Source of the DNA: a virus
Virus record (IMG/VR): IMGVR_UViG_3300032242_002920
Coordinates: 1-64,000 of that record
DNA length: 64,000 bases
Strand: one strand, 5' to 3'
Shown: piece after piece, positions 8,849-60,200 of the stretch
Layout: every line of letters starts with the position of its first letter
Numbering within the stretch: position 1 is the stretch's first letter
Position numbers and translations under genes: made by a program
The notes under the pieces: model-generated
What the model was told of the DNA's origin: nothing
The model's input: only the letters and a program-made list of their open reading frames with translations
The model's database searches: none

Positions 8849-8850
8849 TA

Positions 8851-11558: not shown

Positions 11559-11613
11559 ATTGGATTTAGACATTGAATCTATTGAAATTACTCTCGAAGA
11601 CATTGGTTTATAG
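11548..11613 (+). CDS. Possible 21-aa acidic peptide
   Basis: MDLELDLDIESIEITLEDIGL*, with upstream AAAGGA, overlapping the previous stop. Confidence 0.35.
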   Translation: MDLELDLDIESIEITLEDIGL

Positions 11614-11639
11614 CTGAAACCTAACTGGTAATTAGTAGC

Positions 11640-13267: not shown

Positions 13268-13301
13268 TAACTGGATGATTACCTAGCATATAATAAATAA
13301 C

Positions 13302-41418: not shown

Positions 41419-41467
41419 ACCTTCTTTATTGTATTTCGCTAACTTATAATTTTTGAAAGATATTTAT

Positions 41468-43918
41468 ATGGCCAGAACTTACGACAGACCACCCGGTGTA
41501 AAAGTCACCGAAGTTGCATCTACCAGCGTTGATCCGCTAATTGCCACTCCCGACCTTCTTTGCTTAGTTGGTCCCGCATCAGGAACTATTCAAAAGCAAG
41601 AATTAGTTGGTCCCCTAACTTATGTAACCGTCACCGGTGTAAGCTCTACTGCTGGCAGCAGTACGATTACTGTTACCGGTGGAGCATCTAACCTTTCAGT
41701 AGGGATGCTAGTAGAAAATGCTACCACCCCCGCTAATACAACTAGTCCCTTTGCACCAAATACGACTATTACAAATGTAAGCGGTAGCACAGTTACTTTA
41801 AGTCAAAACGCACTTGCAACCATTTCAAACGCCACAATCACTTGCGGCGTTCCAGTTAAATTTAATAACATTGGTACTACCGACGTACTTACTTTGTCAA
41901 GTGTAACTGCGGTTGCCGACCCGGATTCGACTCAAGCGCCCACTGGATATTCTTCAGCTAGCGGTTATTACAATAACATTGGTACCAGCACATATGGCGT
42001 CGCCAATTTGCAATTTGGATCATATTATTTTAATCCAACAAATCACACAATTGCTCCTAGGGCAGTTATTGCTAAAGCTGCTTTAAAGGCCGATGTTACG
42101 TCAAGTAGCACGACAATTACAGCAATTGGTGATCCAGATCAATTTTGTTCAAGCGGAACGATTATCATTAATGATTCTACAAATGGATCAGAGCAAATTT
42201 CTTATACCGGAATTACTACCCCAGCCGATGAATACCAAACAATTACTCTTTTAAACGCTACCGGCGGAACTTTTACTCTTAGCTTCAATGGCGTCACAAT
42301 TGCAACTCCCCTTAATTCTACTGCAAGTTCAAGTGATGTTCAATCGGCACTAGCCGGATTGTCTACCATTGGTGGTACTGGTAACGTAAGCGTTTCCGGA
42401 TCTAATGGTGGCCCTTATCGGGTTGAATTCAAAGGCAACTTTGCTGGTACAAACGTTCCATCTATTGTTGCAAATGGAGCCGCTCTTACAGGAACCAGTC
42501 CAACAATTACGGTAGCCGTAGCAACTTCCGGGGACAACAGCGAATTTGATTTCACAGGGTGCACAAGAGGAATTAATTCAACAAATGCCGTTGGTCACTC
42601 AGCAGATACCGGCACAAACACTTCAATCCAACAGGGTTTGGCGGTTCCAAGCGGAAGGTCCGTATTTGTTACATACAATTATACTCCGGCTAATTATTAT
42701 CAACCATATCTTATTGATGGCGCTACAACAAGCGACATTGAAAGTCGTTTTGGTCAAGCTGTTTCAAGCACCGATGGTGTGACAGTTATTTCACCACTTT
42801 CGCTTGCTGCTAAAATTGCAATTGAAAACGGTGCCAATCGATTCATCCTTCAACCATTGTTTTATTCGCCCGACACGGATGATGTCATGGCAAATAGGCA
42901 GGCTCCAACTAATGCTCAATCAGTTCTTGCAGATACATGGGCCAAGGTATTCAAAGGACTAAGAAGCCAAAGAAATATTGGCGTAATTGTTCCAATTCTT
43001 GGGCAAACTGCATCTTATACATATGGATCAGATGGAACTACAACTCCGGCAGATTTGACATCAACTGCCGATGCATTGCAAATTAACGTTGCAAAGAAAC
43101 TTCAAGAGCATATTGCATTTGTTGATCAAAATAATCAACAGTACACAATTGGTATTTTTGGCGAAGATTCGACTCAGGCCACAACTGCTCATAATTATGC
43201 TGATCGAGTTACCGTTCTCTTTAATCACATTAAACAACTTCAAACTTATGTAAGCAATAATACTTCCTACAATGAGCGCATGGTATTTATTGCTCAAACC
43301 AAGTTTAGTAAACCATCACTTACCGGCGGAACTACACCAATGTATCTTGGCGGTCAGTATGCCGCAGCAGCTATTGGCGGAATGCTCGTATCTCGCTCAG
43401 TTGCAACGCCTTTAACAAGAAAGGCCCTCGGTTCATTTTCAACTGTTGAAGATCTTAGAACTGATAAGAATAAAACGGAAGATTCTGGCCTTGGATTCTT
43501 GGTTATTGAACAAAAGAGGGATGGCACCATTCAGGTTCGTCATTCGCTTACTACAGATGTTACCAGTGTTGCCAAATCTGAACTTTCGGTTGTTAGGGCT
43601 AAATACTTTATGCTTAATTCTTTGGTTAACACCATTGATACTCAAATTATTGGCAAGATGGTTGCGGACGATGCTGCGCCTATTACAATTCAGACAACAA
43701 TTTCAAATGCCCTTAGAACTCTTCAAGAGGATGGAAATATCGTTGGATTTAGCGGAGTACAGGCAACTCCAAAATCAACGGATCCAACAATTATTGAAGT
43801 ACGATTTAATTATCGCCCAGCATTCCCAATCAACTACATTAATATCGCCTTTACAGTTGACTTAACTACTGGGGCCACATCAGTTACAACTGCGGACCAA
43901 GCTAACTTAGGAGCATAA
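41468..43918 (+). CDS. Tail sheath protein with inserted beta modules
   Basis: Y.RPPGV.V.E N-terminus; LSLAA.IA.ENGA; PLTRK; VRHSLTT...ELSVVRA; V.F.Y.PA.PINYI.I.F. Confidence 0.92.
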   Translation: MARTYDRPPGVKVTEVASTSVDPLIATPDLLCLVGPASGTIQKQELVGPLTYVTVTGVSSTAGSSTITVTGGASNLSVGMLVENATTPANTTSPFAPNTTITNVSGSTVTLSQNALATISNATITCGVPVKFNNIGTTDVLTLSSVTAVADPDSTQAPTGYSSASGYYNNIGTSTYGVANLQFGSYYFNPTNHTIAPRAVIAKAALKADVTSSSTTITAIGDPDQFCSSGTIIINDSTNGSEQISYTGITTPADEYQTITLLNATGGTFTLSFNGVTIATPLNSTASSSDVQSALAGLSTIGGTGNVSVSGSNGGPYRVEFKGNFAGTNVPSIVANGAALTGTSPTITVAVATSGDNSEFDFTGCTRGINSTNAVGHSADTGTNTSIQQGLAVPSGRSVFVTYNYTPANYYQPYLIDGATTSDIESRFGQAVSSTDGVTVISPLSLAAKIAIENGANRFILQPLFYSPDTDDVMANRQAPTNAQSVLADTWAKVFKGLRSQRNIGVIVPILGQTASYTYGSDGTTTPADLTSTADALQINVAKKLQEHIAFVDQNNQQYTIGIFGEDSTQATTAHNYADRVTVLFNHIKQLQTYVSNNTSYNERMVFIAQTKFSKPSLTGGTTPMYLGGQYAAAAIGGMLVSRSVATPLTRKALGSFSTVEDLRTDKNKTEDSGLGFLVIEQKRDGTIQVRHSLTTDVTSVAKSELSVVRAKYFMLNSLVNTIDTQIIGKMVADDAAPITIQTTISNALRTLQEDGNIVGFSGVQATPKSTDPTIIEVRFNYRPAFPINYINIAFTVDLTTGATSVTTADQANLGA

Positions 43919-44606: not shown

Positions 44607-45131
44607 ATGGTAGAGGAAAACGTTGATCGTTTCCCTGATGAAGTTGTACAGGATGTAGATGGTTTACTATGGTTAGGTTTCCTTGAAGAAACCGTTGAGT
44701 TTTGTGGTCACGAATTTGTTATTCGTACACTTAAACTTGAAGATGAAATGCTTGCTGGCCTAGCAACTAAAGATTATAAAGATTCCGTTTCTCAAGGTAA
44801 GGCTTGGGTTGCGGCTCAGGTCGGAATGGCTCTTGTTTCTGTTGATGGAGATGAAAGTTTTTGTCCTCAAGCTAGTCCAAATAAAACAGATTATGCACGA
44901 GCTAGATTCAAGTATGTTACCAGCAATTGGTATGAACCTACAATTAATTACATTTATGTTAAGTATCTCGAATTGTTAGAACGACAAGAAGCAGTACTGA
45001 GAGAAATGGAAAATTTATCTCAAGAGGGTCGGATTTCGTATATGGCCTCGCCCGACTCTTCGACAAAGAAGGCAGATTCAATGCCGGAGGCAGCAATCAT
45101 GGAGTTTCTGGAGGACGAGGACGAGGATTAA
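44607..45131 (+). CDS. Tail assembly chaperone (G)
   Basis: Between tube and tape measure; AAGGAG SD; contains a slippery heptamer. Confidence 0.85.
   Translation: MVEENVDRFPDEVVQDVDGLLWLGFLEETVEFCGHEFVIRTLKLEDEMLAGLATKDYKDSVSQGKAWVAAQVGMALVSVDGDESFCPQASPNKTDYARARFKYVTSNWYEPTINYIYVKYLELLERQEAVLREMENLSQEGRISYMASPDSSTKKADSMPEAAIMEFLEDEDED
45008..45017 (+). other. Programmed -1 ribosomal frameshift site
   Basis: G GAA AAT TTA contains in-frame A-AAT-TTA; the -1 frame is open to 45373. Confidence 0.85.
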
Positions 45132-45723: not shown

Positions 45724-47487
45724 ATGCCTGAACAAAATCCAGAAAATCCCGGTTTTGATCCCACTATTTTGTCGGCTGCGGTTGCAGACGGCTTAGCTCG
45801 GGCAATGGAAAATCCTTCTGTTAAAGAAGCAATTGCCAAAATCATTGAGCATAAAGACAAAGGCGATTCAGGTCGCAACCTAAGTACGGCTGAAAAGGTT
45901 CAAAAAGCCGTTAGTACTAGTAGGCAAAGATTTACTGATGGCGACGAAAGACATACTAGTGGGGTCTCTTCTAGTGCCTCACGCGCCTCCAGAGGCCTTT
46001 TAGCGGGTCTTAGAGGCGAAAAGCTTTCAGAAGGGGAATACTACTCGGTTCCGCCCGGATTTGGAAATATGAGCGGTCGTATCACTGCTCAAAATGTTGC
46101 GCAAATGATCGCTAACAGACAGTACGCACGTATTGAAAATGCGGCACCCGGAAGCGCTGAACAGGAAGCGGCTATTCGTGGTTATAATAGGGCGTCTTAT
46201 TTTCAAAATGAATTAATTCCTATGGCCAAAGCTGGTCAGCAATTTTATAGACAATTTGCTCAACCAACGTATCGTAAAATGCAAGACATTTCGGCATACG
46301 GCGGAACTCAAATTACCGGTCCAGTAGGAGGCAACATTGGTACCTCTGGGTTTGGATTTAGAAATCCATTTAACGCAGCTTTTAGTCAAGGTTTAGGCAT
46401 TAAAATGCATCAAATGGGCGAGGCTTTGGCACCCGGACTAAATATGCAGCAAATGCAACAAATTGATAACACCTTATTTGGAATGGGATTTAATTTTAAT
46501 AATCCAAGATTTAGTCCTATGGAAAAAGCCTTAGAGAATATTACTCAATATAATCCTGCAATTGATACTGGGCTTGCTGGTCAAACTATGAATTATGCTG
46601 GTCGATATGGAACTACCGAAGATATTGCAAAATTAACTAGTACTATTGAAAATCTTGGCAAAGTGGCTGCTGGCAGTAACGTAAGTATTACTCAACTTCA
46701 ACAGCAGATTGTTTCTTACCAGCAAACTGCGGGTATGAGGGGCGGGCTTGCTACGCAATCGGGTCAGGCCGCCTCATATCTTGCAGAAAGATTTCCGGGA
46801 ATGGATCCAAGCATGTTTTCAAATCTTGCGGCCACTAATCCAATGGTTCAACAATATGCTATGAAAATGGGATATCAATCATATCAAGTTGGAGCAATGA
46901 ACGGTAAAGAATTGTCTCAAGCTACTATGGGCGGAATTGGCGACGCATGGAAGCAAATTACTGGTCGCGATATTATGCACCTTGACCCGCACTATCTTAA
47001 CACCAAAGAGGGAAGAAAAGCGCTGGGAACATTGCAGGGACTTTATGGTTTCAATGTCGATGCAAATCAGTTGCAAAATCTCATAAAAAATGAGAAAAAT
47101 AGACAGCGAGCGGATTCAGCATTGACTGAACTTGGCAACATTAAAACGCACAAATATAAATCTAGTCCGGGGCCACATTTTCACGATGCTAAAAAGTATC
47201 ACGATCCAGATCAAGCAGATTTATCAAGCGTTTCTCACGTACTTGCAACTGCTGGTTATAAAAAATCTGATATTGATAAAATTATGGATGATGTAACCGG
47301 ACCCGGAGGAACGCTCAAACAAGGTTGGCGAGATAAGATTCGACAAAAAATTGACCAACGTAGAACCGGGGATAAGCCTGCGAAAAATGATATTGACAGA
47401 ATGATCAAATCTTTGAATGATGCGGCCAATGCTGCCAAGGATTGGAAAAACAATAATCCAGATCCGCCAAGAAAGAATGGTGGTTGA
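45724..47487 (+). CDS. Tape measure protein (short)
   Basis: First plus-strand gene after the chaperones; Ala/Gly/Gln/Met-rich, helical character. Confidence 0.75.
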   Translation: MPEQNPENPGFDPTILSAAVADGLARAMENPSVKEAIAKIIEHKDKGDSGRNLSTAEKVQKAVSTSRQRFTDGDERHTSGVSSSASRASRGLLAGLRGEKLSEGEYYSVPPGFGNMSGRITAQNVAQMIANRQYARIENAAPGSAEQEAAIRGYNRASYFQNELIPMAKAGQQFYRQFAQPTYRKMQDISAYGGTQITGPVGGNIGTSGFGFRNPFNAAFSQGLGIKMHQMGEALAPGLNMQQMQQIDNTLFGMGFNFNNPRFSPMEKALENITQYNPAIDTGLAGQTMNYAGRYGTTEDIAKLTSTIENLGKVAAGSNVSITQLQQQIVSYQQTAGMRGGLATQSGQAASYLAERFPGMDPSMFSNLAATNPMVQQYAMKMGYQSYQVGAMNGKELSQATMGGIGDAWKQITGRDIMHLDPHYLNTKEGRKALGTLQGLYGFNVDANQLQNLIKNEKNRQRADSALTELGNIKTHKYKSSPGPHFHDAKKYHDPDQADLSSVSHVLATAGYKKSDIDKIMDDVTGPGGTLKQGWRDKIRQKIDQRRTGDKPAKNDIDRMIKSLNDAANAAKDWKNNNPDPPRKNGG

Positions 47488-47489
47488 TT

Positions 47490-48260
47490 ATGGCTGGATC
47501 TAAAGATAAAATTGTTTTTTCTCATCCCGCTTTAAGTGATGATTTGACCGTTGATGTCAATCCAGATTCCATTACTTGGTCTTATGGATTAAACACTCAA
47601 AATTATCCAACATTCGGTGGAGAAGTTGTTCAAATTCTTTCAATGTTTATTGAGGACATGACTATCACCGGTACAGTTGGTTCGTATGCAAAAATGGAAA
47701 AAATTTATAGTTGGTTTGTTGCTTATATGGAAAGGGCGACGCAAGGAAAAAGTCAGGCATACGATACAACTCCAGTCACGTTTTGGTACCCGACTCGTGG
47801 ATGGAAATTTTTAATTCAACCTAAAGCCGCCCCCGGCTTTAAATATGGCAAAGATGTTGTTGCTCCTACATGGTCGGTATCTGCCGCTGTTGTTGAATCT
47901 CCAGAAAGTTTTCAAAATACCTTGCAATCTACGGCTGAGGCTCAGGCTATGCAAGACCCTGAATTTAAACCATTTGGTACAGCTACTGCTCGTATTGGAT
48001 ACAGCGAATTTAATCCTTGGACAACACCAAATACTGGTAAGTCCTATAAGGAAGGTGCAACCAAAGAATATTATGCAGAATTAAGTGGTGCTAATGGCCC
48101 ATTTAATTCATTTATGAAATCTTGGCTTGGAGAAGGGTCGTCTGTTGCAGAAGCACTTGGAGCTAATTATTCTAAACCAGCATTTATGAATCCGGGTGCC
48201 GCCAAGGATGGCGCTCGTCGTCCTGATGGAACCACTCCCAAAACTCAAGGCGGTCAATAA
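47490..48260 (+). CDS. Baseplate/tail tube initiator-like protein
   Basis: NPDSI.WSY.LNT..YPT.GG.VVQILS; follows the tape measure gene. Confidence 0.65.
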   Translation: MAGSKDKIVFSHPALSDDLTVDVNPDSITWSYGLNTQNYPTFGGEVVQILSMFIEDMTITGTVGSYAKMEKIYSWFVAYMERATQGKSQAYDTTPVTFWYPTRGWKFLIQPKAAPGFKYGKDVVAPTWSVSAAVVESPESFQNTLQSTAEAQAMQDPEFKPFGTATARIGYSEFNPWTTPNTGKSYKEGATKEYYAELSGANGPFNSFMKSWLGEGSSVAEALGANYSKPAFMNPGAAKDGARRPDGTTPKTQGGQ

Positions 48261-49076
48261 ATGGCTGATAAAATTAAATATACTACACAAGACGCAGCTT
48301 TTTTAAATAGACAAGTTGGTCCACGACCTGATTTGGGTTGGGCGGTTAATAGTCCAGACATCAGTGCTAATGATAGTAAAAATTGGACCGTTCAATTAGT
48401 TAAAGCAAATAAAAAATATCTTAACCTTTGGGTTGAAGAAGCAGATATTGATTTTTCAATGTCCGGAACTACTGGTCAAAGTCGTTATAGAAGAGAATTT
48501 TATCCGCACTCTTTTAACGAACCTACATTGGTGCTAAAGGGTCGTATGCCAAATCAAAGAGAGTATAACAAATTAGCGGCGTTTGTTCGCGAGTCTCATT
48601 CAGAAGCACTTAATGCCAATGTTAATTACTCTGAAAAATCAGCAGGAAAGAAAGCTTACCCTACGGTTTCTTTAATTATGAGACCCCATGCCCCTGAAAA
48701 TCGTTTTCCAAGAACTCAAAAAGGTGGTCACCGGGGAATGCAACTTGAAGGATACATTAAATCGATTGCTGCGGGAGCACAAAAATTTGAATTCGCACCT
48801 GCATTTGAAATTCAATTTATTGTTGCGTCATCCGCCGTTTCTTCTGGAATTGGAATTTATCAAGATGATCTCGACCCCGGCTCTCAAGTTGTTAGTTGGA
48901 TGTCTATTTTTAAAGACGGTTATCTTGGTGCCAAATCTGGTTATCAAATTAAAGAGGCGATTGGACAAAGTACTCCGGGTTATTATATTAATGCTGCCGG
49001 AGAATCCGTTATTGAGCAACCTAAAGGTGCGCAAATTAATCACCGAGGCGTGGTTCCAAACGATTTAAGTAAATAA
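48261..49076 (+). CDS. Baseplate/minor tail protein (tube-like fold candidate)
   Basis: Synteny; QSR..R.FYP...G.I..I..G. Confidence 0.6.
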   Translation: MADKIKYTTQDAAFLNRQVGPRPDLGWAVNSPDISANDSKNWTVQLVKANKKYLNLWVEEADIDFSMSGTTGQSRYRREFYPHSFNEPTLVLKGRMPNQREYNKLAAFVRESHSEALNANVNYSEKSAGKKAYPTVSLIMRPHAPENRFPRTQKGGHRGMQLEGYIKSIAAGAQKFEFAPAFEIQFIVASSAVSSGIGIYQDDLDPGSQVVSWMSIFKDGYLGAKSGYQIKEAIGQSTPGYYINAAGESVIEQPKGAQINHRGVVPNDLSK

Positions 49077-49077: not shown

Positions 49078-50700
49078 ATGAAAAGACTAGTTTATTCGCC
49101 TTCAGTTAAAGCGTGGGTAAAATCTGATTCAGGAGTAATAGATTTAAGTCCATATATCACTGATTGCAAAATTGAAAGAAAAGTAAATGATATAAGTACC
49201 GCTGAAATTACCTTTAGAAATCCTAGGGTATTACAAGACGGTAAACCTCGTTTTATGTTCACCGAAAAAACAAAAAACGATGGAACTGTTGGACCCGTTT
49301 TTCATCCTATGGACCCCATCACAATTGTTTTAAAAAGACTTGATGGCAAACCCGTTCAAGTATTTACGGGATATTGCGACAACGTGCCATATGTTCAGTT
49401 GTTTCCCGGAACTGCAAAAATTACTGCATCTTGTACTCTTAAAAGACTTCTTTACACTTATTGGGATCCGGGACTTGTTTTTGTTCGTGATTTTATGAAA
49501 AATTATGGATGGAGTTTAGGTGGCGATGGAGTAGTTCGACGCGGAAGTGGTGATTCGTATTTAACAGACACCACAAAAATTACTAATAATCAATTAAATG
49601 ATTCCAGTATTGGCAATTTGGTTTATGTTGTTTTAAATGAAATCGGTGGCTGGGATCCAAGTAATATTTTTATTGAACCACTTCCAGAAAATATTGGCGG
49701 AATTATCAGTCAATTATTTGATCAAATTGTAAGCGATAATAAAAAAGTTAATGCTGACATAGCAAAAGTGTTACAAGACATTGTTGGTAGCGGATCTTTT
49801 GGTACGTCAGGAACAGGATCGGGTATTTCAAATCAAACCACCGGCACGGTAACCATTATTGGTGACAGTATTACATACTACAGTGAAACTGCAATTCAGA
49901 ATGCAATATCAAACGCTCAAATTTTTGCGCAGATAGGAAAGCATATGAAACTTGATGCGGGAACAACTAACGGTGGAGATTCTGGATTAAAAATTCTTAA
50001 AGATAATAAAAATTCGCTTGGCGATGTTGTTGTTATTGCCTTGGGAACAAATGATGAAGACGTAAAAAATCCATCAACGTTTGAAGGTTGGATCGATCAA
50101 GCAATGCAAATTATTGGTTCTACTAAAACCGCCGTATTTGTTACTGTAACAAATAATGATAATGTTAACAATGCTATTAGAAATAGGGTTGCAAAATTTA
50201 ATAATTTAAAAATTGCCGATTGGAAATCAAAGGCACAACTTGGACCAGATGGCATTCACCCTACCGCTCACGGTCAAAAGGTATTTGCAAAAACTATAGC
50301 AGATGTTGTTAATTCAATTTTACCTGCAAACCCAGAAGCTACTACGGGAACTGCGGTTTACGAAGGAATTCGTATGGCGTCTTGGATTGTTCCAATTCTT
50401 AAATGGGCAAGGCAACATGGTTGGAATGGAACAATTATAAATGGATATAGATCATACGCTAAGCAAAAAGAACTTCATGACGCATGGATTGCAAGAGGCA
50501 AAACTGGTCTTCCGGCAGCCGCGCCGGGTACAAGTAATCACGAAGGAAGCGAGTTTCCTCGCGGTGCTGTCGATGTAGATGAAGCTTCCGCTCCCGAATT
50601 AAGTAGAATTCTTTTAAGTGGGCCATACGCTACTACTTTGGTATACGCTGGAGATGCTGACGTTGTTCACTTTTCACATCCTCATAACGGTGGATTTTAA
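49078..50700 (+). CDS. Baseplate hub N-half paralog 1 plus SGNH esterase plus M15-type peptidase
   Basis: Shared MKRLVYSP domain; GDS, GTND, DGIHP; GYRS..KQ...AAPGTSNH...AVD...VHF. Confidence 0.85.
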   Translation: MKRLVYSPSVKAWVKSDSGVIDLSPYITDCKIERKVNDISTAEITFRNPRVLQDGKPRFMFTEKTKNDGTVGPVFHPMDPITIVLKRLDGKPVQVFTGYCDNVPYVQLFPGTAKITASCTLKRLLYTYWDPGLVFVRDFMKNYGWSLGGDGVVRRGSGDSYLTDTTKITNNQLNDSSIGNLVYVVLNEIGGWDPSNIFIEPLPENIGGIISQLFDQIVSDNKKVNADIAKVLQDIVGSGSFGTSGTGSGISNQTTGTVTIIGDSITYYSETAIQNAISNAQIFAQIGKHMKLDAGTTNGGDSGLKILKDNKNSLGDVVVIALGTNDEDVKNPSTFEGWIDQAMQIIGSTKTAVFVTVTNNDNVNNAIRNRVAKFNNLKIADWKSKAQLGPDGIHPTAHGQKVFAKTIADVVNSILPANPEATTGTAVYEGIRMASWIVPILKWARQHGWNGTIINGYRSYAKQKELHDAWIARGKTGLPAAAPGTSNHEGSEFPRGAVDVDEASAPELSRILLSGPYATTLVYAGDADVVHFSHPHNGGF

Positions 50701-51978
50701 ATGAAACGCCTTGTATATAGCCCTTCAGTTAAAGCGTGGGTAAAAACTGATTCTGGTGTTGTAGATCTTAGTCCGTATATTATTAACTGTACAATTAAAA
50801 GAAATATTGACGATGTTAGTAAAGCTGAAATTACTTTTAGAAATCCTAAAGTAATTCAAAGCGGTAAAAACAGATTCATGTTTACTGAACACGAAGATGA
50901 AAATGGTCAAATCAAACCAGTTTTTCACCCCATGGATCCTATCACAATTGTTATGGAAAGAGTTGCAAATAAACCCGTTCAAGTATTTACCGGTTATTGC
51001 GATACAACTCCATATGTTCAATTATTTCCGGGTGCCGCTAAAATTAACGCGTCTTGTACTTTAAAGAGACTTTTGTATACGTACTGGGATCCCGGCCTTC
51101 TTTTTGTTCGCGATTTTATGAAAAATTACGGATGGACTATTGGTAATAACGGTCAAGCCGTAAATGAAAAACTTTCGACAAAAGCAGAAAATTTTGCTGA
51201 TAAACCGGCTAAATCGGTCAATCTTAATGATTCTAGTATCGGCAATTTAGTTTATGCAACTCTTAATGAAATTGGCGGCTGGGACCCAAGTAATATTTAC
51301 ATTCAACCTTTGCCCGACAATATTGCAACAACTGTATCCAAACTTTTTGACGAAATTGTTCAAGAAGACAAAAATATTGAAGAAAGTTTAGCGGATGTTA
51401 TGCAAAAAATTGTTGGTAGTGGAAGTTATGGAACTCTAGGTACCGTGAATGGTAGCAGTCAAGCATCTACTGGGGGTGGTGGAAGCGTTGGAACGGCCCC
51501 CGTTGCGGCGGCAAATGCCCCACAATTATTACAAAAATTAATTAACGAATGTAATCGTATTGCAAATCATAGGACCTATTATTCTCAAGCGCACAGAAAT
51601 GGTTCCGCTGGTGTTCAACAACCAAATAAAGCCAGTGACGGGTCGTATTATTTTGACTGCTCTAGTTTTGTATCATATATAATGAATTTCATCGGACATT
51701 ATGGGGGCAATATGACTTGGGCAGAAGTTTCAGGATGGTTTCAAAGTAGCTGGGGTAAACAGGGCAAGGGTAAATACTTAACTGTTTGGGCTAACCCGGA
51801 GCACGTTTTCTTAGAGATTAAAGATCAAAATGGATCGTCTAAATTTATTGGAACTTCGAGTTATATTGAGGGGCAAAATCCCGATTCAAATAGTCCCGTT
51901 GGTCACAGTCATACAGTTGGTTGGATGGGCAGTTATACCACTGATGCGTTTACTCCTAAGCACATTCCGGGGTTTTAA
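50701..51978 (+). CDS. Baseplate hub N-half paralog 2 plus NlpC/P60 domain
   Basis: Shared N domain; YSQ...FDCSSFVS...ANPEHVFLE. Confidence 0.85.
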   Translation: MKRLVYSPSVKAWVKTDSGVVDLSPYIINCTIKRNIDDVSKAEITFRNPKVIQSGKNRFMFTEHEDENGQIKPVFHPMDPITIVMERVANKPVQVFTGYCDTTPYVQLFPGAAKINASCTLKRLLYTYWDPGLLFVRDFMKNYGWTIGNNGQAVNEKLSTKAENFADKPAKSVNLNDSSIGNLVYATLNEIGGWDPSNIYIQPLPDNIATTVSKLFDEIVQEDKNIEESLADVMQKIVGSGSYGTLGTVNGSSQASTGGGGSVGTAPVAAANAPQLLQKLINECNRIANHRTYYSQAHRNGSAGVQQPNKASDGSYYFDCSSFVSYIMNFIGHYGGNMTWAEVSGWFQSSWGKQGKGKYLTVWANPEHVFLEIKDQNGSSKFIGTSSYIEGQNPDSNSPVGHSHTVGWMGSYTTDAFTPKHIPGF

Positions 51979-53207
51979 TGAAACGATTAGTTTATTCACC
52001 GTCAATTAAAGTTTGGGTAAAAACAGATTCGGGCGTTGTTGATTTAAGTCCATATGTCGTCAATTGCAGAATTGAACGCAAAATTGATGACGTAAGTTTT
52101 GCCGAAGTTGAATTTCGAAATCCTAAAATTACTCAAAATGGTAAAAATCGATTTATGTTTACTGAGCATGAAACTGACGGTAAGGTACTGCCAGTTTTTC
52201 ATCCCATGGATCCAATTACCATAGTTGTTGAAAGATTAGCTGGCAAACCCGTACAAGTGTTTACTGGTTATTGTGATACGGTTCCAGACGTTCAATTATT
52301 TCCGGGAACGGCAACAATTAAAGCATCTTGTACTCTTAAAAGATTACTTTATACGTACTGGGATCCGGGACTTCCTTTCGTTCAAGAATTTTTAAAAAAT
52401 TATGGATGGAATTTAGACATGACAACCGGTAAAGCTGGAAAACCATTAAGTACGGAAAATCAAAATGTTTCTAAAGTAAATAAATTAAACGATTCTAGTA
52501 TTGGTAATTTGGTTTACGCGGTTTTAAATGAAATCGGCGGTTGGGATCCGAGTAATATTTTTATTCAACCATTACCCGGAAATATTGCAGACATCGTTTC
52601 AAAACTTTTTGATGAAATAGCAAAAGAAAACAAAAATGTTAATAAAGAAATTGCAGACGTTTTACAAAAAATTGTTGGCAATGGTACATTTGGAACAGCT
52701 TCAGCAGGAGGCGGAGGTGGTAGCGCTCCCGGAGGCGAGCCGGGAACAAGTGGCGCGGTTCATAATTTAAGACAAAAAATCAACATTATACGCGCATCCG
52801 CAAATCAATATGGCATTCCACCTGAGTTTCCTCTTGCAGTTGCTATTGTTGAAACCAGTTTGGAAGATAATGCGGATACTGGAACTTATCATGGTTGGTA
52901 CCAATGGGCAAGTTCTGAATCCTATGTTGGTCAACCAACTTTGGATATGTCAAAGGCGCACGACCTTGGTTATGCATCAGGGCAATTTTGCAGAGCAGCC
53001 AAAGCTCGTGAAAAATACAAACAATATGGGTACCCAACATGGGCTAGATCTTGTCAGTTAAATCCATCTAGCGTTAATAACGCTGCGACGCATGGAATAT
53101 ACGGGGCCTTTAATCCAAACCCAGATAGCAATGCATTGTACAGTGACGCTAGATTTCCAGAATTTATTAATCAAGCTAAAGAATATTTAAGACAGTATCC
53201 AAACTAG
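51978..53207 (+). CDS. Baseplate hub N-half paralog 3 plus lysozyme-like/lytic transglycosylase domain
   Basis: Shared N domain; A.QYGIP....LAVAIVET...GWYQ. Confidence 0.8.
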   Translation: MKRLVYSPSIKVWVKTDSGVVDLSPYVVNCRIERKIDDVSFAEVEFRNPKITQNGKNRFMFTEHETDGKVLPVFHPMDPITIVVERLAGKPVQVFTGYCDTVPDVQLFPGTATIKASCTLKRLLYTYWDPGLPFVQEFLKNYGWNLDMTTGKAGKPLSTENQNVSKVNKLNDSSIGNLVYAVLNEIGGWDPSNIFIQPLPGNIADIVSKLFDEIAKENKNVNKEIADVLQKIVGNGTFGTASAGGGGGSAPGGEPGTSGAVHNLRQKINIIRASANQYGIPPEFPLAVAIVETSLEDNADTGTYHGWYQWASSESYVGQPTLDMSKAHDLGYASGQFCRAAKAREKYKQYGYPTWARSCQLNPSSVNNAATHGIYGAFNPNPDSNALYSDARFPEFINQAKEYLRQYPN

Positions 53208-53256
53208 CAAAGTAGCATTACCTTTAGAGTAATAAGAGAAAGATAGGAATAAAATT

Positions 53257-54777
53257 ATGAGAGCAAATGCGCCCGCAGGCGGACCGGCAACACCGGCAGT
53301 AAAGAAACCCGCTAATATTTTTCCACAAGGAACTAGTCAAAACGTTCATAAGATTCAAACTGATGCGGGAACGTATGGTGCGTCGGTTAACGGAAATACA
53401 GTTAAATATCAAACGTATGTAATACACACTGCGGGAACCCATTTTGATGTTGCAGCCCCTGTTAAATGTTTAGTCGCATCAGTTAAAAATTCGGGTAATA
53501 ATAAAAAAGTTTTAATTCAATTTTTAGAAACCATCGGTCTTTATAAAGCCGGTGATTATATGTCAATTTCTGCGCTTTCTGGCAGTATTAGCATTGGACA
53601 TCAATACAAAAAGGGCGCAGTTATTGGAACCAGTAGTGATAATACGGTTTCTATTGCTATGAATCCATCAGGAGCCAAAAATGGACGTATTACTCTTGAT
53701 GGAGCGGCTGACCCAGCAAAATTTGTTGATTATGCTCAAGGAGTGGCCGATGCAGCCGGGAATCCAACTAGTGCAACTAGTGCAACTGGAACTAATAATG
53801 ATACTGCTAGCGCTGGTGGAACGGACGTAGGTTCCATTGCAAAAGCTGCGGCATTTTCTACATTTTTTACACTGCCGGGTATCTTCAATACTTATGAATC
53901 TCAAAGTTTAACTGGTCAAAGAAGCTTAATGAATGATCAGCCACTTATGCCATTTATTCAACAATTATGTGGAGCTTGCCTTAGGCATTTTATGTCTACT
54001 CCTACCGGCGATTTCTTTGCATTTTATCCAGATTATTTTGGCGGATTAGGTAAAACCGCCTATTGGCTTATTGAAGACATTGAAGTTATAAATGGAAGTA
54101 TTGAATTATCTGACGATCAATTGGCAACTCATGTTTACGTTGTTGGAGACATTGTTGGAGCGCCATCCGGTGCGCTTGGAGGTAATGGTATTGATACATT
54201 AGATCGTTTAAACACGGGTGGAGTGGTAACTATTTTCAATGCATTTATGGCTGATTTCTTAAATGGTACAGATGTTTCTGGAGCCGCTAAAGTAGATAAA
54301 ACAAAGTACCCAACTCTTGCTGACAAAGCTGACGCCATCGCGTTCCTTCAAAAGTATGGGGCCAGACCATATTACGAAGAACAACCTACAGTTCGAGCGC
54401 CCATTTATGAAGCATTTTTAGCTTATCAAAAATTTTGTTTAAAATGGTCCGATCAATTTAAAACGACGTTTGAATTTACTTTTATGCCTGAACTTTATCC
54501 GGGCGGTTTAGTTGCATTTCCAGAGCATGGTTTGCAATGTTATGTTAACTCCGTAACGCATAACTGTTCTTACGAAACAGGATTTACTACAACTGCTGAA
54601 TTATCAGCGCCCTCTGCATTTAAGGGTGGCGATGGCAATCCACTTGATCCGGATAAAGCATGGGTTCACGCTGGCATGATTAGGTCTTGGCCAACCGATG
54701 ACAATGTTGGCGCTTTTACAGGAGCTACGGATACGGATCCAGCCCAACAAAAAACTAAGGGCAAGGGCAAGAAATAA
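53257..54777 (+). CDS. Baseplate hub C-half with a degenerate M23-like N-terminal domain
   Basis: LMNDQPL...R.FMS.P.GDF.A.YPDYFG...YGARP...TFMPELYPG...YVNSVTH...GFTT.A.L.AP. Confidence 0.75.
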   Translation: MRANAPAGGPATPAVKKPANIFPQGTSQNVHKIQTDAGTYGASVNGNTVKYQTYVIHTAGTHFDVAAPVKCLVASVKNSGNNKKVLIQFLETIGLYKAGDYMSISALSGSISIGHQYKKGAVIGTSSDNTVSIAMNPSGAKNGRITLDGAADPAKFVDYAQGVADAAGNPTSATSATGTNNDTASAGGTDVGSIAKAAAFSTFFTLPGIFNTYESQSLTGQRSLMNDQPLMPFIQQLCGACLRHFMSTPTGDFFAFYPDYFGGLGKTAYWLIEDIEVINGSIELSDDQLATHVYVVGDIVGAPSGALGGNGIDTLDRLNTGGVVTIFNAFMADFLNGTDVSGAAKVDKTKYPTLADKADAIAFLQKYGARPYYEEQPTVRAPIYEAFLAYQKFCLKWSDQFKTTFEFTFMPELYPGGLVAFPEHGLQCYVNSVTHNCSYETGFTTTAELSAPSAFKGGDGNPLDPDKAWVHAGMIRSWPTDDNVGAFTGATDTDPAQQKTKGKGKK

Positions 54778-56720
54778 TGGCTATTAAACATTTTGTTAAT
54801 CCATCGTTGGGTCCTAGACAAATGGGGCTTATTACAACTGTTGAACCTGCAACTCGCAAAATTGAAGCAAAATTAAAAGATGGTGGAGAGATTGCAGTTT
54901 CGCTCTTTGATATTCCTCCATTTTTTGTTTGGCCTAAAGTGGGCGACCTTTGGATTATTCGTAAAGATGGTGGATATTGGAAACTTGATACTAAAATTGA
55001 TACGGATAAAGAATACCCTGTAGATAATTTAAATGCAGGCGAGGGTAAAATTAGCGCGGACATTATCAAAACACCGTCTGGTAAAAACGTCGTCGTTGTT
55101 GATAAAACAAATGGCACTAACGGCCAAGTTGTTCAATATAAAGATGGCGCATGGATTCTTGGAGAAGTTGTAACCAGCGGAGGGTCCAGTACAGATATTC
55201 AGGCTACTGTAGCTGGGTCAGCCGCCGGAACAGATCCAACAGTAACAAAAAGAGTTGTTGGAACAACAACTTATTTTGATTTTACAATTCCTAGCGGAGC
55301 AACTGGCGCACAAGGTAATCCCGGAGCCGTTCAAACTGTTACCACATCTTCTGGGTCTGGTATCACAATTGGAGGAACCGGTGCTAATCCAACTGTAAGC
55401 ATTGACACAACAAAAGTTGCAACTTATAGCGGATCTACTCTTGCATCTGGAATCACATCATCTTCTTTAACCAAAATTGGCACATTGTCATCTGGCGCTG
55501 GAACGGCTTTTGTTAAAACAGACGGAAGCGGAAATTTAACTACTGATTCAAATACATATCTTACTGGCAACCAAACTATTACTATGTCAGGAGATGTTTC
55601 CGGTAGCGGTACAACTTCAATTACTAATATGGCAATTGGTTCTGGTAAAGTTACAGATTCTATGATTAATGCCGGTATAACTACCGGTAACGCCAGTCCT
55701 ACGTCGGGAGCCGCATCTTCGCTTCTTGTCAGCGCGGGGAACGCCCTTGGTTCTACAATTACTTCAACTAATCCAGTTATAGATAAATCATATCTTAATA
55801 ATACAATCGCTTCAACGGTTGATATTTCTACTGCCGCAATCTCGACTGGTACAAAAATTGTAAACATTGGAACCAATTCTGCTGCTGGTTCAACGACCAA
55901 TATTAATATTGGCTCGCAAGCAGGAACCGCTGGTTTAAATATATATTCTGGAGCGACAACTGCCGCAATGTCTTTTGGCGTATATGGATCGACGCCATTA
56001 ATTAGCTTCGGAACCAGTGCTTTGATAACTGACATTAATATGAATAGTCATAAAGTTACAAATGTTACAGATCCAACTTCCGCTCAAGATGCGACGACTA
56101 AGAATTATGTCGATTATAATGGAAGATTAAATTTTTCTACAACTGGTTACACTGCTAAGGCATCAATTGTGTGTGTGCAACAAAGACCGGAAATAGTTCA
56201 AGGTGTAACAAATATCAGTTTATCAACTGCGGGTTATACCTATTATGTCAAGTTTATTCCATCTACATCTATTACCGTTACTGCCGGATCTTCTACGGTT
56301 AAAGTATATAATACATTAAGCTCTAATTCAACTTTTAATGGTAAAATCAGATTTTATGATAGTTCGGGTAATTATTTGCTTAATTCTGGTTTAACTACAG
56401 TTGTAGAAACTTCTACAATTACATTAAGTGGAGGCGCGGGACTTAAAACTGGAACTTTTGGCGGAGGTATGACTGGCACCGCCTCTCTAACAGCGGGAAC
56501 GGTTTATTGGGCTGGAATTTGGGTTCCAACTACTGCAACTGGTACGGCCCCGGTTCTTTCTGATTCTTCATATTTACAAAATCAAGCTTGGTACGGTACC
56601 GGATTAACACTTGCTAATGCGGATTATTATGTATCAACTTCTACAAGTACCGGAAATCCACCCGCGACTATAACAGGTGCATCTGCAACTCAGGGTCCAT
56701 TTATTCTTATTACTCCATAA
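54777..56720 (+). CDS. Central spike-like protein (OB-fold N-terminus) with fibre-like extension
   Basis: G.ITTV.P...WPKVGD.W; position between hub and gp25-like gene; FDF.IP.G..G.QG; DATTKNYVD. Confidence 0.6.
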   Translation: MAIKHFVNPSLGPRQMGLITTVEPATRKIEAKLKDGGEIAVSLFDIPPFFVWPKVGDLWIIRKDGGYWKLDTKIDTDKEYPVDNLNAGEGKISADIIKTPSGKNVVVVDKTNGTNGQVVQYKDGAWILGEVVTSGGSSTDIQATVAGSAAGTDPTVTKRVVGTTTYFDFTIPSGATGAQGNPGAVQTVTTSSGSGITIGGTGANPTVSIDTTKVATYSGSTLASGITSSSLTKIGTLSSGAGTAFVKTDGSGNLTTDSNTYLTGNQTITMSGDVSGSGTTSITNMAIGSGKVTDSMINAGITTGNASPTSGAASSLLVSAGNALGSTITSTNPVIDKSYLNNTIASTVDISTAAISTGTKIVNIGTNSAAGSTTNINIGSQAGTAGLNIYSGATTAAMSFGVYGSTPLISFGTSALITDINMNSHKVTNVTDPTSAQDATTKNYVDYNGRLNFSTTGYTAKASIVCVQQRPEIVQGVTNISLSTAGYTYYVKFIPSTSITVTAGSSTVKVYNTLSSNSTFNGKIRFYDSSGNYLLNSGLTTVVETSTITLSGGAGLKTGTFGGGMTGTASLTAGTVYWAGIWVPTTATGTAPVLSDSSYLQNQAWYGTGLTLANADYYVSTSTSTGNPPATITGASATQGPFILITP

Positions 56721-56770: not shown

Positions 56771-57220
56771 ATGACTTGGAGTTTAAAATTAACAGCAGAT
56801 GGAGATTTGGCTCTAGGTAGCCATGGATTTGCCGAGGTTGCGAATGAAGAAAAACTTATTCAAGATTTGCGATGCGAATTATTGGAACCTAAAGGGTTAA
56901 ATCCTTTAAACCCTCAATATGGTTCAAACCTTGAAGGCGAATTGTCTTCTGATTTTATGACAACTGACAATGAGCTAATGACAAGGATTGAGGCCGATAT
57001 TATGGAGGTTATTAAAAGTTACCAAGACCGACAGCTTGCTAGGGCAAAATACGACAAAATGGTTAGAGGTTCAGCCACTTTGACTCCAAAAGAAGTAGTG
57101 GTTGCCGCTCAAATTTCAAATTTTGTTCCTAATCAAACAAGCGTAAATGTTACCGTAGACATTACCACTGCTTCGTCAAGTCCAACTCAATACCCCGTAC
57201 AACTCAATCTTACAATTTAA
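56771..57220 (+). CDS. gp25-like baseplate wedge/sheath initiator
   Basis: GDL...KL.QDL...L.EP.G....P.YGS.L. Confidence 0.8.
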   Translation: MTWSLKLTADGDLALGSHGFAEVANEEKLIQDLRCELLEPKGLNPLNPQYGSNLEGELSSDFMTTDNELMTRIEADIMEVIKSYQDRQLARAKYDKMVRGSATLTPKEVVVAAQISNFVPNQTSVNVTVDITTASSSPTQYPVQLNLTI

Positions 57221-57224: not shown

Positions 57225-60200
57225 ATGGCTACACAAAAACAAATTTCAGAAAGCATTAGACAGCAGTTAAGGATTTTAGATCCTTCAATTTCTGCTGAAG
57301 ACGGTACGCCAGAACGGAAAATTATCGATACGGTAGCGCAAGCAATTGCGGACGCTCAGGTAGACCTTAATGTTCTTAATGGCGCATTTGATGTTGAGGC
57401 TAAATATTCTTCTGATCTTGATAACATGCTTGCAATTTTGGGCTTTGGTCGTCAGCAAGGGTCAAAGGCAACTGGATTTGTTACATTTTCTAGAGCAGAT
57501 GTGGCTACTGCGCCAGTTGTTATTAATGCTAATACAACCATATTTACTCCATCTGGTGGTTCAAATAATACTAGCGTTGTATTTAGAACCACAACAACTG
57601 TCACCCTTCCAATTGGAAGTAAATCAGTTACAGCTCCAATTGAGGCAATTCAAGCGGGAACAATTGGCAACGTTGCTGCCGGTACTATTACCGAAACCGT
57701 TGGTAATCCAATTTATGGTATTACATCAGTAAACAATGATTATCCAACAACTGGTGGACAAGATGCTGAGTCGGATGTTGAATTAAAAGCTCGATTTATG
57801 ACAAATGGGGCCTTTCGTAATGTAGCTGGTACACGCGATCAATATACAGCGCTTGCCCTTTCTACGGTTTCTAAAAAAGCAAATGTTGTAGGACCCATTT
57901 CAACTTATCAAGAGTATATTCAAGTACCGGACAATTCAGATGTTTCTGGTGGCACAGAATACACTACTGCACTATCAAATAACACAAATTCAAAACATAT
58001 TTATGATAATGCGCCATATTTTGTTATGAATGACTCTGGAGTGTCTCCAGTTTATTACAATGCAGACATGGATTTTGTTTTAAATGTTCTTCCTACAAAA
58101 AAGGCAAAGGGGGACGCTTTAAGAAACGTAGCTTCGGTAGATCCAACTTCAACAACTGCTCCAACAATTTATCAGCCTAATGTAACATTTACTAATGTTT
58201 ATACCGATTTAATGACTAATAAACCGGAAGATGCAATCGCTCCCGGAGATACGCTTTTCTTTCAGCATAGTTACATGTCAACTGCTTCAAGAAATGATTA
58301 TGATCGAAATATTTTAAACTGCGTTGATGTATATGTAAATGGAGAAGACGCACAAAATGCAAGTTCCATGATTTCACGCCCCGGAGTTGAAGTCCCGACT
58401 CATTTGTTTACAGACGATGTTTATAGTGCATTTTATGTAAACAATTATCGTCGCGTTGATGAACCGGGTCATAGGCCTGTTAAGGGCAACGTTTATACTC
58501 CGTTGTATAAACAACCTATTATCAATTTGCCCAATCAAATCAGTTTATCAACTGGAACATTTCAAAAGGGCATTCATTATTGGCTGGTTGAAGAAACCAC
58601 AAACCTTTATGGAACAATTAGAGCAAGAAACGGCATTGAATGGTCTTCAACAATCAAAGCTAAAACATCTAATGACCCAGATATTGGTCCATATACTGGG
58701 CCGTATATTGCGGACACTTCAATTTCTAGCACAACGTTATCCGTAGATCTTCCTTCATCTAGTTCAATATCAACCACTACTGCTGCTCAAACTTATACAG
58801 TTACAAATAAACAACTTACGAGCAATGTGGCAAAGCTTACCATTGGAACTCACACGCTAAACGTTAACGATGTAGTTGCTGTGACCGGAGTTGATTCTAC
58901 GTTTAATCAAACTTCGGCAAAAATTACTGCAATTGATTCTACTAGTATTTCTTATCAACTTACAGCATCTAATGTTGCATCTACTAGCTCAAGCGGCACG
59001 GTTACTTTATCAACAATTTATTCTGGTAATAAAACGCCGATTAAATTAACTTCAACGGATTTTCTTCCCGCATCTGGATATATTTTAATTGGTAGTGAAA
59101 TTGTTCAATTTAGTGCAAAAACTGGATCTACTGGCAGTCCGGCAAATACATTAACTATTACGGGAAGAGGACAGTTTGGAACAACTGCCAAAGATATTCC
59201 TGCAAGTGCTACTACTGTTAATGTTCTTTTTCAAGTTGCTCAAGCTTCTGGTTTACCGACTAACGATACATTGTTAATTGGTTCTGAGCAAATTTCATAC
59301 AACCTTCCTGTGGGCACTTCAACTTCCCTAGTTCAGCCAATTTTACGAGGAATTAATGGCAGCTATGTAACTTCTCATAGTAACGGTGATACCGTTTCAG
59401 TATTGTTTACAACAGTTGATAAATCGATTTCAATTGAAAATTATCAATACGACGCAAATATTATCTTATTACAATCATTACTTGATAATAATAAACAAGT
59501 TACTACCGATGTACTTGCTCATAAGGCTAAAACACGTTACTTTAAACCCGATATTACGGTTATGTATTCGCCAAGTGCAAACAAAACAAATATTAATGAA
59601 TCTATTAGAAAATCTTTGGCAAATTATTTTGATACCGTTTACTTTGGTAACGAAATTCAAATGTCAGACATTCTTCAAACTGTTCACAATGTTGGCGGCG
59701 TTGACAATGTAAAATGGTCAAGAGATACCCTTGATGAGCAATCTAAAAATTATGATTCTGATGGTGACGCACGAATTAGAATGGTTGAAACAAATGTATA
59801 CGGCGACCCTGTTGCAACGCCCGTTTTAGATTTGGTAAGGGTTGGCGACGGAATTACGCCAACTGAATATAGACTTTATCTTCCATATTTATCAAAAATT
59901 GATCAAAGTGAACTTTCGGTTCCAACAAATATAACAACATCAACAAGTACTTCAACGGGAACACTCGGTGCAGGAACATATTATTATACTGTTACCGCCA
60001 TTAATGTTAATGGAGAGACTACAGCAGGTACGGCAACCTCTGGAGTTGCGGTTACCGGGTCAACCAATACTGTAACAATTAACTGGAACCCTGTTGATAA
60101 AGCAACCGGTTACAAAGTTTATCGTACCACATTAGCAGGTCCAGATTTTTCAACCGGTAAACTTCTTGTAGCGCAAATTGATGATCAAGGCACAACTTCT

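Follow-up and report, generated by a model that had tools for sequence, protein, structure and literature searches.

The stretch of DNA analysed in this work, called the window below, is the first 64 kb of the 132-kb IMG/VR virus record IMGVR_UViG_3300032242_002920, a metagenome-derived contig with a CheckV completeness of 82%. Positions 49078-54777 of the window are occupied by four intact open reading frames (ORFs), all on the + strand, which probably encode a baseplate hub in two pieces, the N-terminal half in three versions and the C-terminal half in one. Hub N-half paralog 1 (49078..50700, 540 amino acids) starts with the N domain (49078-49803), which is followed by a Gly/Ser/Thr linker and two putative enzyme modules, an SGNH-type esterase (~49858-50280) and an M15/VanY-like peptidase (~50395-50697). 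In paralog 2 (50701..51978, 425 amino acids) the N domain (50701-51432) and the linker precede a tail (~51508-51975) that is a candidate Cys-His peptidase of the NlpC/P60- or Amidase_5-like kind. Paralog 3 (51978..53207, 409 amino acids) has its N domain at 51978-52694, a linker modelled with low confidence (residues 234-258), and a tail (~52752-53204) resembling muramidases or lytic transglycosylases of lysozyme fold. The hub C-half gene (53257..54777, 506 amino acids) encodes a domain of M23/LytM fold without the usual metal ligands (~53299-53766), a disordered linker (residues 174-208) and the hub core, equivalent to hub domains II-IV (~53863-54747). The first two N genes abut (TAAATG), the second and the third overlap (TAATG), and the C-half gene is preceded by a purine-rich spacer of 49 nucleotides (nt).

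The first-pass annotation of this DNA, made from the sequence alone, had claimed that three abutting genes share a domain of about 240 amino acids, and that in each of them a Gly/Ser/Thr linker leads to an unrelated C-terminus. Its coordinates were exact, and a hidden Markov model (HMM) of the domain matched the copies with E values of 1e-102 to 1e-107 (3.8e-102 for copy 1, 1.2e-105 for copy 2). The shared N domain spans approximately residues 1-240, with 150 alignment columns, the last at residue 243, being invariant in all three copies, and the alignment confirmed that the tails beyond the Gly/Ser-rich linker are mutually unrelated. Amino acid identity of the N domains is 67% between copies 1 and 2, 69% between copies 1 and 3, and 72-73% between copies 2 and 3. 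Compared as DNA, the copies form direct repeats that are 69-79% identical, with a spacing of 1623 and 1274-1277 nt, and the longest identical nucleotide run between them is 24 nt. Nei-Gojobori estimates gave synonymous divergences (dS) of 1.17-1.64 and nonsynonymous divergences (dN) of 0.23-0.26, i.e. dN/dS ratios of ~0.15-0.2. Judged by these values the N copies are old and under purifying selection, as had been proposed from their many synonymous differences. Because dS is this high and the longest identical run this short, a duplication created during assembly can be excluded, and recent gene conversion in the window was rejected on the same grounds.

For a contig assembled from a metagenome, and only 82% complete, one has to consider that the locus is an artefact: an assembly error, a single gene broken by frameshift, or a row of decaying pseudogenes. 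We regard this as extremely improbable. The copies differ from each other with dS values of 1.2-1.6 and carry different tails, their ORFs are intact, and the layout of three N-half genes followed by one C-half gene recurs in independent assemblies with protein identities of 48-69%. Moreover, the break between the third N gene and the C gene is kept in the relatives in differing reading frames.

The N domains and the C-half match different parts of the same protein family profile, PHROG 2810. The three N domains matched with E values of 1.8e-36, 2.6e-35 and 3.3e-41 (copies 1, 2 and 3), starting at profile position 47 and ending at positions 262, 269 and 307, respectively, and residues 150-454 of the C-half matched positions 632-920 of the 952-position profile (E 9e-62). 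This supports the view that N domain and C-half are complementary parts of one hub protein family, as already suggested in the first-pass annotation. Single-gene homologues containing both parts, a check proposed there, do exist: they are genes of ~850-1100 codons in cultured actinophages. We found matches in 224 cultured-phage records, at identities of 29-39%; the hosts were Mycobacterium (209 records), Gordonia (9), Rhodococcus (4), Mycolicibacterium (1) and Eggerthella (1). The C core matched at one place in 224 of 224 records and the N query at 225 places in the 224 records, and in none of these 224 records was the hub gene split. An exhaustive search by HMMER, with the N domain as the query, returned 678 representative clusters at E<=1e-3. 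Among the best 150 of these 678 representatives, 65 (830-1280 amino acids) also contained the C region, whereas 85 (182-616 amino acids, some of them fragments) did not. The label 'virion structural protein' carried by PHROG 2810 relatives is an annotation. An NCBIfam scan of seven proteins yielded no hub model, its sole match being to the AxeA1 esterase (E 0.0017, far below the cut-off). It must be noted that membership in PHROG 2810 is established by sequence, while kinship with the hub proteins T4 gp27 and Mu gp44 is deduced from the fold and from the place of the gene. The family also has a fused member in a 602-kb actinobacterial scaffold (Candidatus Solirubrobacter pratensis, positions 330384-351289), which suggests a prophage or a phage-derived tail gene cluster at that locus.

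Structure models agree with the division into two parts. In the AlphaFold2 model of paralog 3 (m506c3a8f1ed5; predicted local distance difference test score, pLDDT, 80.2) residues 6-125 form an N-terminal tube-like beta-barrel corresponding to hub domain I. This segment aligned with moderate scores to residues 1-103 of the pyocin R2 hub (6u5h_A; Z 9.1, root-mean-square deviation (rmsd) 2.9, 98 residues aligned), residues 3-126 of the Pa193 protein (9b45_d; Z 9.1) and residues 6-94 of the Neisseria Mu-like protein (3d37_A; Z 8.7). Foldseek searches with the N model returned the hubs of the Anabaena contractile injection system, diffocin, Mu (gp44), T4 (gp27) and phage 812 with E values between 3.6e-4 and 6e-3 (7b5h_AJ 3.6e-4, 1wru 3.2e-3, 2z6b_D 5.9e-3) and a probability of 1.00 to hub chains. 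The model of the C-half (ma1c7e55b4677, pLDDT 79) supplies, from a separate gene, the equivalents of hub domains II-IV: residues 203-497 aligned with residues 107-375 of Mu gp44 (9ki1_G; Z 8.6, rmsd 4.9, 196 aligned) and residues 201-453 with residues 145-366 of the Milano hub (8fqc_C1; Z 8.6). Further alignments of the C-half were to the hub of phage 812 and to the lambda, T5 and Chi tip proteins, and its Foldseek match to 3d37_A had an E value of 6.2e-7. According to the models, the two gene products are consecutive, non-overlapping parts of a classical hub.

We also predicted the complex of N(1-236) with C(205-482). The model reached an ipSAE (interaction prediction score from aligned errors) of 0.71 (0.73, 0.70 and 0.71 in the individual runs), compared to 0.00 for the best control; at least 71% of the contacts were common to the runs, with a partner pLDDT of 65 or more. 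Of 80 solved complexes 58 reach the pass mark used here, compared to 2 of 110 mismatched pairs, a calibration that is only rough for our pair, which was modelled with alignments of our own. The predicted contacts are beta-strand pairings, between N residues 30-37 and C residues 432-437, and between N residues 193-196 and C residues 252-255. We consider the score as support for the complementarity of the two halves, a sign of likeness to a hub rather than proof of binding. Among the predicted contact residues of the N domain 44 of 61 are invariant in all three paralogs, compared to 98 of 172 other N-domain residues, a marginal enrichment (Fisher p 0.047). Since the predicted docking surface is kept in all three, all three N-halves can probably dock to the C-half.

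As to the split itself, the first-pass annotation had to be revised on two points. It had placed the split simply at the point of enzyme insertion, and had described the fourth gene as containing only the complementary hub region. In fused relatives two modules lie between the N and the C regions. A glycosidase comes first (~residues 230-380), either SLT, Phage_lysozyme2 or the same module as the window's own third tail, and one of M23, Amidase_2 or GDSL comes second (~440-750). Stand-alone C-halves (270 matches) often start with an M23, Amidase_2, Amidase_5, NlpC/P60 or VanY module. Because the fused relatives carry both modules between N and C, the split falls between the two inserted enzyme modules and yields N-enzyme and enzyme-C products; paralog 3 and the C-half keep this ancestral order.

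The first ~170 residues of the C-half are thus not hub but a separate domain of M23/LytM fold. Residues 15-170 aligned with 9gy1 (Z 12.3), lysostaphin (4qpb_B; Z 11.7, rmsd 2.9, 122 aligned) and LytM (2b13_A; Z 11.6), although the His and Asp residues expected of metal ligands are missing: the window has A106, T130 and S132 where 46-48 of 94 homologues have His, and a gap at the Asp column (Asp in 56 of 94). These columns we take, from the M23 motif, to be the zinc ligands. Pfam M23 did not match the C-half at E<=0.01. Going by these substitutions, the LytM domain of the C-half is probably degenerate and non-catalytic. The C-half alignment was built from stand-alone C-halves; an earlier one with full-length fused proteins was not used, as it misplaced the first ~50 residues of the C-half on the fused N domain. 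The closest relatives (P0152-P0166) also lack the His/Asp ligands, whereas more distant stand-alone C-halves keep a canonical M23. In bacteria, LytM domains without ligands are known as amidase activators, and by analogy a regulatory or binding role is conceivable for the ligand-less domain of the C-half.

The conserved order bears on another explanation, namely that only one of the N-halves is built into the hub, the others remaining free as late lysis enzymes, assembly helpers or spares, or that three kinds of virions are made, each with a homotrimeric hub. The lysozyme-fold module of copy 3, the copy next to the C-half, has matches in 20 of the 150 representatives, 15 of which are fused, and in 12 of these 15 the module directly follows the N domain. 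As fused relatives carry that module after the N domain, copy 3 together with the C-half looks like the ancestral gene, a point in favour of this explanation. We nevertheless find this explanation improbable. The three N domains are equally conserved, with a pairwise dN of 0.23-0.26 throughout and 44 invariant residues among the 61 predicted to dock, which is not easily reconciled with proteins that have ceased to dock. The three genes, moreover, stand in one tight late-gene string. Promoter-like sites (29 vs 33.4 expected) and terminator-like sites (9 vs 10.8 expected) were not in excess at the locus, and no convincing inverted repeats hinting at a switch between the paralogs were seen there. 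On the basis of these site counts and the lack of convincing inverted repeats a regulatory switch between paralogs was rejected.

Regarding the enzymes, the kinds named in the first-pass annotation (SGNH, M15, NlpC/P60, lysozyme-like) are reasonable, though none is proven and the support is uneven. Paralog 1 matched Pfam Lipase_GDSL_2 with an E value of 4.3e-5 (24.5 bits, under the cut-off of 32.9), and its translation contains the strings GDS, GTND and DGIHP, which would correspond to SGNH blocks. It also had weak sequence matches to the PDB chains 5ug1_A and 5ufy_A, labelled 'Acyltransferase' (E 0.036-0.05). The VanY match of the same protein (E 2.1e-4, 21.5 bits, under the cut-off of 25) covers only profile positions 15-67 of 132. 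Paralog 2 had no Pfam match at E<=0.01. Its D319-C320-S321, H368 and H421 are invariant in 10 homologues, and the Atlas pointed to clusters in which 11-81% of the members carry NLPC_P60, as well as to Amidase_5 clusters. A profile made from the paralog 2 alignment gave chance-level matches only (E 0.15-0.9) against PDB sequences, therefore the NlpC/P60 assignment stays a lead. A module similar to that of paralog 2 occurs in the third C-half protein of one of the relatives described below (L013), where it matched NLPC_P60 with an E value of 0.0012. The tail of paralog 3 has a lysozyme-like fold: residues 261-409 aligned with the muramidase 8b2h (Z 12.4, rmsd 2.6, 118 aligned), with MltE (Z 10.2-10.7; 6ghz_B 10.7), with phiKZ gp144 (Z 9.9) and with goose-type lysozymes (Z 9-9.8). 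An 'ETS' string follows the first helix, and presumably contains the catalytic Glu. Pfam did not match this tail, the nearest being Glucosaminidase with an E value of 0.052, thus the evidence for a glycosidase is one of fold and not of activity.

To see how the arrangement varies among relatives, we applied two HMMs, for the N and the C domains, to 38 loci on viral contigs, 33 on metagenome contigs and 2 in genomes, and counted the copies. Among the viral contigs we counted seven loci with three N-half genes and one C-half gene (3N+1C), one with 2N+3C (L013), one with 1N+1C (L012), one with a split pair next to a fused gene (L017), 27 with a single fused ORF and one with fragments; 2N+2C was absent. 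The corresponding numbers for the metagenome contigs were six 3N+1C, one 2N+3C, one 2N+2C (L052), two 1N+1C, no split pair with a fused gene, 15 single fused ORFs and eight with fragments. Both genome loci were fused (the Candidatus Solirubrobacter pratensis scaffold mentioned above and a 4.3-kb contig of a Saccharibacteria-labelled metagenome-assembled genome). After dropping duplicates at 100% nucleotide identity of the C core, and counting L005 and L045 (98.2% identical) once, 13 distinct split genomes remained: eight with 3N+1C (the window, L005, L006, L008, L009, L010, L011 and L049), one with 2N+3C, one with 2N+2C, two with 1N+1C (L012 and L050) and one with a split pair plus a fused gene. 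Neither half is present in more than three copies in any of the 13. In a quick tree of the C core the eight 3N+1C genomes and L012 form one clade with a support of 98 (Shimodaira-Hasegawa-like approximate likelihood ratio test, SH-aLRT), and L050, L052 and L013 fall outside it.

Some of these relatives deserve a separate description. In L008 the first N copy (6270-7010) is only 246 amino acids long, an adaptor without an enzyme tail, and in its near relative L009 the first two copies are swapped. The two N-half and three C-half genes of L013 lie at 7393-14186; the modules of its C-half proteins are a canonical M23, a second M23-like and an NlpC/P60-like module, and the first two C-half genes share a start peptide of ~21 residues, which, judged from sequence, suggests recent exchange at the 5' ends. 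L017 (8139-13653) has a split N and C pair and, immediately behind it, an entire hub gene of the fused type, so that domains for two hubs are encoded. Several stand-alone C-half proteins have the length of their longest contig in common (e.g. three at 38669 and two at 166534), a hint that more genomes with multiple C-halves exist. The relatives do not share one set of enzymes; their modules are shuffled and comprise Amidase_2+SLT, DPBB_1, SLT, SLT_3, M23 and NlpC/P60-like ones, the first copy of L008 having none at all. The enzyme-2 module of the window is closer to that of L008/L009 (57-59%) than to that of L005/L006 (34-37%), whereas the N domains show the opposite pattern, therefore the enzymes move independently of the adaptor.

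Age and purifying selection stand, but the history of the N copies is less simple than the old, retained triplication originally proposed, since in the tree the N copies cluster by phage lineage and not by gene position. Positional orthology was rejected by the approximately unbiased (AU) test both for a clade of the enzyme-2-bearing copies (p 2e-60) and for a clade of the last copies (p 9e-29), a test weakened by the fact that the groups were named after the tree had been seen. When the 61 predicted interface columns were removed, the three deep lineage groups persisted, while the relation of the window to L005/L006 was not resolved. The C copies of L013, L052 and L017 likewise cluster within their own genomes in the quick C-core tree. 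Taken from the sequences, the tandem adaptor domains would either have been homogenised repeatedly in the past or have been re-duplicated independently.

Our interpretation, which we hold to be probable but far from certain, is the following. The four genes would encode one baseplate hub of the T4 gp27/Mu gp44 kind, cut into two polypeptides. From the N-half would come hub domain I, the first tube-like beta-barrel, together with a small helical subdomain, and from the C-half all other hub domains; the halves would reassemble non-covalently, and three N:C pairs would close the ring that caps the tail tube. Since the ancestral gene would have been cut within its enzyme-bearing insert, each half would trail an enzyme on a flexible Gly/Ser linker. 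The three N paralogs would share the same docking surface and differ in cargo, which is predicted to be an SGNH esterase with an M15 peptidase, a Cys-His peptidase, and a lysozyme-fold glycosidase, respectively. Competing for the same C-half, they would give rise to a tail tip that carries a mixture of enzymes. After contraction of the tail the hub would be at the tip of the tube. An unordered mix, in which any combination can occur, one-of-each included, is judged likelier than a fixed 1:1:1 ratio, because a single C-half species flanks each N-half and nothing was seen that would order them.

The fixed arrangement was one of the ideas put forward in the first-pass annotation, next to virions with mixed tips: an asymmetric hub with one of each N-half and three C-halves (1:1:1:3). 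The full enzyme set would then always be delivered. Such an obligate, encoded heterotrimer would break the three-fold symmetry of the tail tip and amount to a fixed and ordered enzyme kit, e.g. a deprotecting esterase, a glycosidase and two peptidases, and the ceiling of three copies would reflect the positions in the ring. We think of both the fixed hub and the ordered kit as possible but rather unlikely. The retention of three N copies in eight distinct genomes, which form one C-core clade with L012, is in line with it, and so is the ceiling of three copies for either half in the 13 distinct split genomes, L013 having three C-halves. The abutting and overlapping N genes, separated from the C-half by the latter's own 49-nt spacer, would fit coupled and equal translation of the three, and all three copies are under purifying selection. 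On the other hand, relatives with 2N+3C (L013), 2N+2C (L052), 1N+1C (L012 and L050) and a split plus a fused hub (L017) show that one-of-each is not required in the family, the first N copy of the close relative L008 has no enzyme, and three copies within one clade may be mere inheritance. By analogy with the ring of alternating domains I and III in the phage 812 hub, a single C-half species would offer no surface by which the three N-halves could be distinguished. A fixed 1:1:1:3 hub is thus possible for the window but not a rule for the family.

Several points speak against the mixed two-piece hub that we prefer. The preference for unordered mixing is an argument from architecture, and three N copies in eight of the nine members of the clade fit one-of-each equally well. 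Presence of the four proteins in the virion is deduced from the annotation of relatives. Neither the N domains nor the C-half matched any Pfam family at E<=0.01. The fold scores are moderate (Z 8.6-9.1), and a Z of 7-8 is a common best score for models without a clear match. The score of the N:C complex may reflect the predictor's memory of intrachain contacts in solved hubs, and the residues predicted to be in contact are no more than marginally enriched in invariant positions (p 0.047). Finally, the enzyme assignments are weak by sequence, SGNH and VanY being below the Pfam cut-offs and the tails of paralogs 2 and 3 having no match.

It is instructive to compare the split hub with known systems. 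The nearest is the fused hub-lysin of cluster C-type actinophages (PHROG 2810), to which the window proteins are 29-32% identical over the N domain and ~39% identical over the C core. In Myrna the fused protein is gp132 (963 amino acids, 'virion structural protein', with the note LysA); its gene follows the tape measure gene and three small genes, and precedes minor tail, baseplate and wedge genes. Rhodococcus phage E3 gp119, another fused member, is annotated as 'baseplate protein'. The fused actinophage hubs carry enzyme modules between N and C in one gene per genome, whereas the window has a divided gene with three copies of its N-half. The Mu gp44, T4 gp27 and P2 gpD hubs (1wru, 9ki1_G, 1k28_D, 2z6b_D) have the same fold as the window's two parts and the same place in the gene order, but each of their subunits is one chain that carries no enzyme; the lysozyme of T4 sits on gp5.

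The gp110 protein of Staphylococcus phage 812/K (9euf_E) has the channel domains I-IV and a wall-degrading domain in a single polypeptide, which forms a homotrimer with one type of enzyme. The C-half model aligned with residues 212-623 of 9euf_E (Z 8.6), and the N model matched the same chain in Foldseek (5.9e-3), although sequence similarity of gp110 to the window proteins was not detected. In the phage 812 hub trimer, domains I and III alternate to give pseudo-sixfold symmetry, and the departure of the spike and weld proteins on host binding uncovers the CHAP 'cleaver' domain of the hub (PMC13433997). Bacillus phage 0305phi8-36 gp147 has a core homologous to gp27, decorated with wall-degrading domains whose import has been attributed to intragenomic recombination (PMC2147016). 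The shuffled enzyme sets of the window's relatives fit this idea of domain import. In contrast to our locus, gp147 is the product of one gene with enzymes at both ends of the chain, neither split nor multiplied.

A parallel in the way of working is offered by the VgrG paralogs of type VI secretion, gp27-like subunits with different cargo, even though these belong to a bacterial secretion system and are unsplit. VgrG1-3 of Vibrio cholerae reportedly form a complex. Mixed trimers have been proposed, VgrG heterotrimers being mentioned in one report (PMC4453574), and according to another, VgrG1 and VgrG2 of Serratia do not form heterotrimers (PMC4924876); because of the latter result, VgrG-like mixing cannot be assumed. 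A phiKZ paper considered as a precedent was discarded: the 'heterotrimers' described there are wedge proteins, and the hub gp101 is a plain trimer (PMC13250141). In the literature searched we found no description of a split or multiplied hub of this family.

The genes around the hub have the order expected of a contractile tail. The tail sheath gene (41453..43918, +; phrog_2839 'tail sheath', E 1.3e-47), from which we conclude that the tail is contractile, is followed by the gene of a tail assembly chaperone (44607..45131, +; phrog_2792, E 1.5e-13) and by a candidate tape measure gene (45724..47487, +). The latter is proposed from its position after the chaperone, as in Myrna; its PHROG match is weak, and L005-L009 have a conserved gene at the same place. 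Two genes encoding proteins of 258 and 271 amino acids (47484..49076, +) lie between the tape measure candidate and the hub. The first matched phrog_2786 (E 1.9e-14), the second had no PHROG match, and both are conserved in L005-L009 with 46-72% identity. Directly after the hub follows a gene for a 647-amino-acid protein (54777..56720, +), by position a candidate central spike or minor tail protein, then a baseplate protein that is gp25-type by PHROG annotation (56771..57220, +; phrog_2669, E 1.6e-9) and a baseplate wedge subunit (57225..60818, +; phrog_6, E 7.1e-42). This order (sheath, chaperone, tape measure candidate, two small genes, hub, 647-amino-acid protein, baseplate protein, wedge) is the same in Myrna, and it puts the split hub in the position of a hub-type gene, between the tape measure candidate and the gp25-like and wedge genes of a contractile tail.

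In the 647-amino-acid protein the N-terminal ~126 residues are conserved in L005-L009 and the C-terminus is variable. Its Atlas matches were weak leads to oligonucleotide/oligosaccharide-binding (OB) folds with template modelling (TM) scores of 0.43-0.55, among them IF-1 and Phage_base_V clusters (0.43-0.45), too weak for us to claim a spike on this basis. The protein encoded directly after the hub varies in length from 167 to 647 amino acids across the relatives (window 54777-56720; L006 11489-11992), and by its sequence it looks like an exchangeable distal part, i.e. a receptor-binding protein or a spike tip. Elsewhere in the window an ORF of 1767 codons lies upstream of the head genes (15939-21242), and ARAGORN found no tRNA genes in the 64 kb. 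The cultured relatives infect high-GC hosts, and the GC content of the window (34-49%) is much lower than that of such bacteria; for this reason the host is probably a low-GC member of the Actinomycetota or of a neighbouring group.

Baseplate hubs are textbook homotrimers, and wall enzymes borne by hubs have been known as single domains on a single chain. Hub-borne wall enzymes as such are not new, as shown by phage 812/K and 0305phi8-36 gp147; what had no counterpart in the literature and the 224 cultured-phage records searched is a hub split in two with multiplied halves. The hub of this phage group can be seen as a two-piece docking system, in which the halves are adaptors for exchangeable peptidoglycan hydrolases; relatives vary each half from one to three copies and shuffle SLT, SLT_3, DPBB, Amidase_2, M23, NlpC/P60-like and SGNH modules between them. 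If the halves mix on one ring, a tail tip would carry several wall-cutting activities without longer proteins, and this would be a testable case of symmetry breaking or combinatorial diversity at cell entry. A fixed 1:1:1 arrangement, if true, would make this the first defined heterotrimer among phage hubs, and a natural scaffold for three cargoes on one contractile injector. The two-piece layout also provides a natural means of coupling enzymes of choice to contractile injection devices. Since all cultured relatives are phages of Actinomycetota, bacteria with thick walls, the arrangement may bear on the way in which myophages cross such walls.

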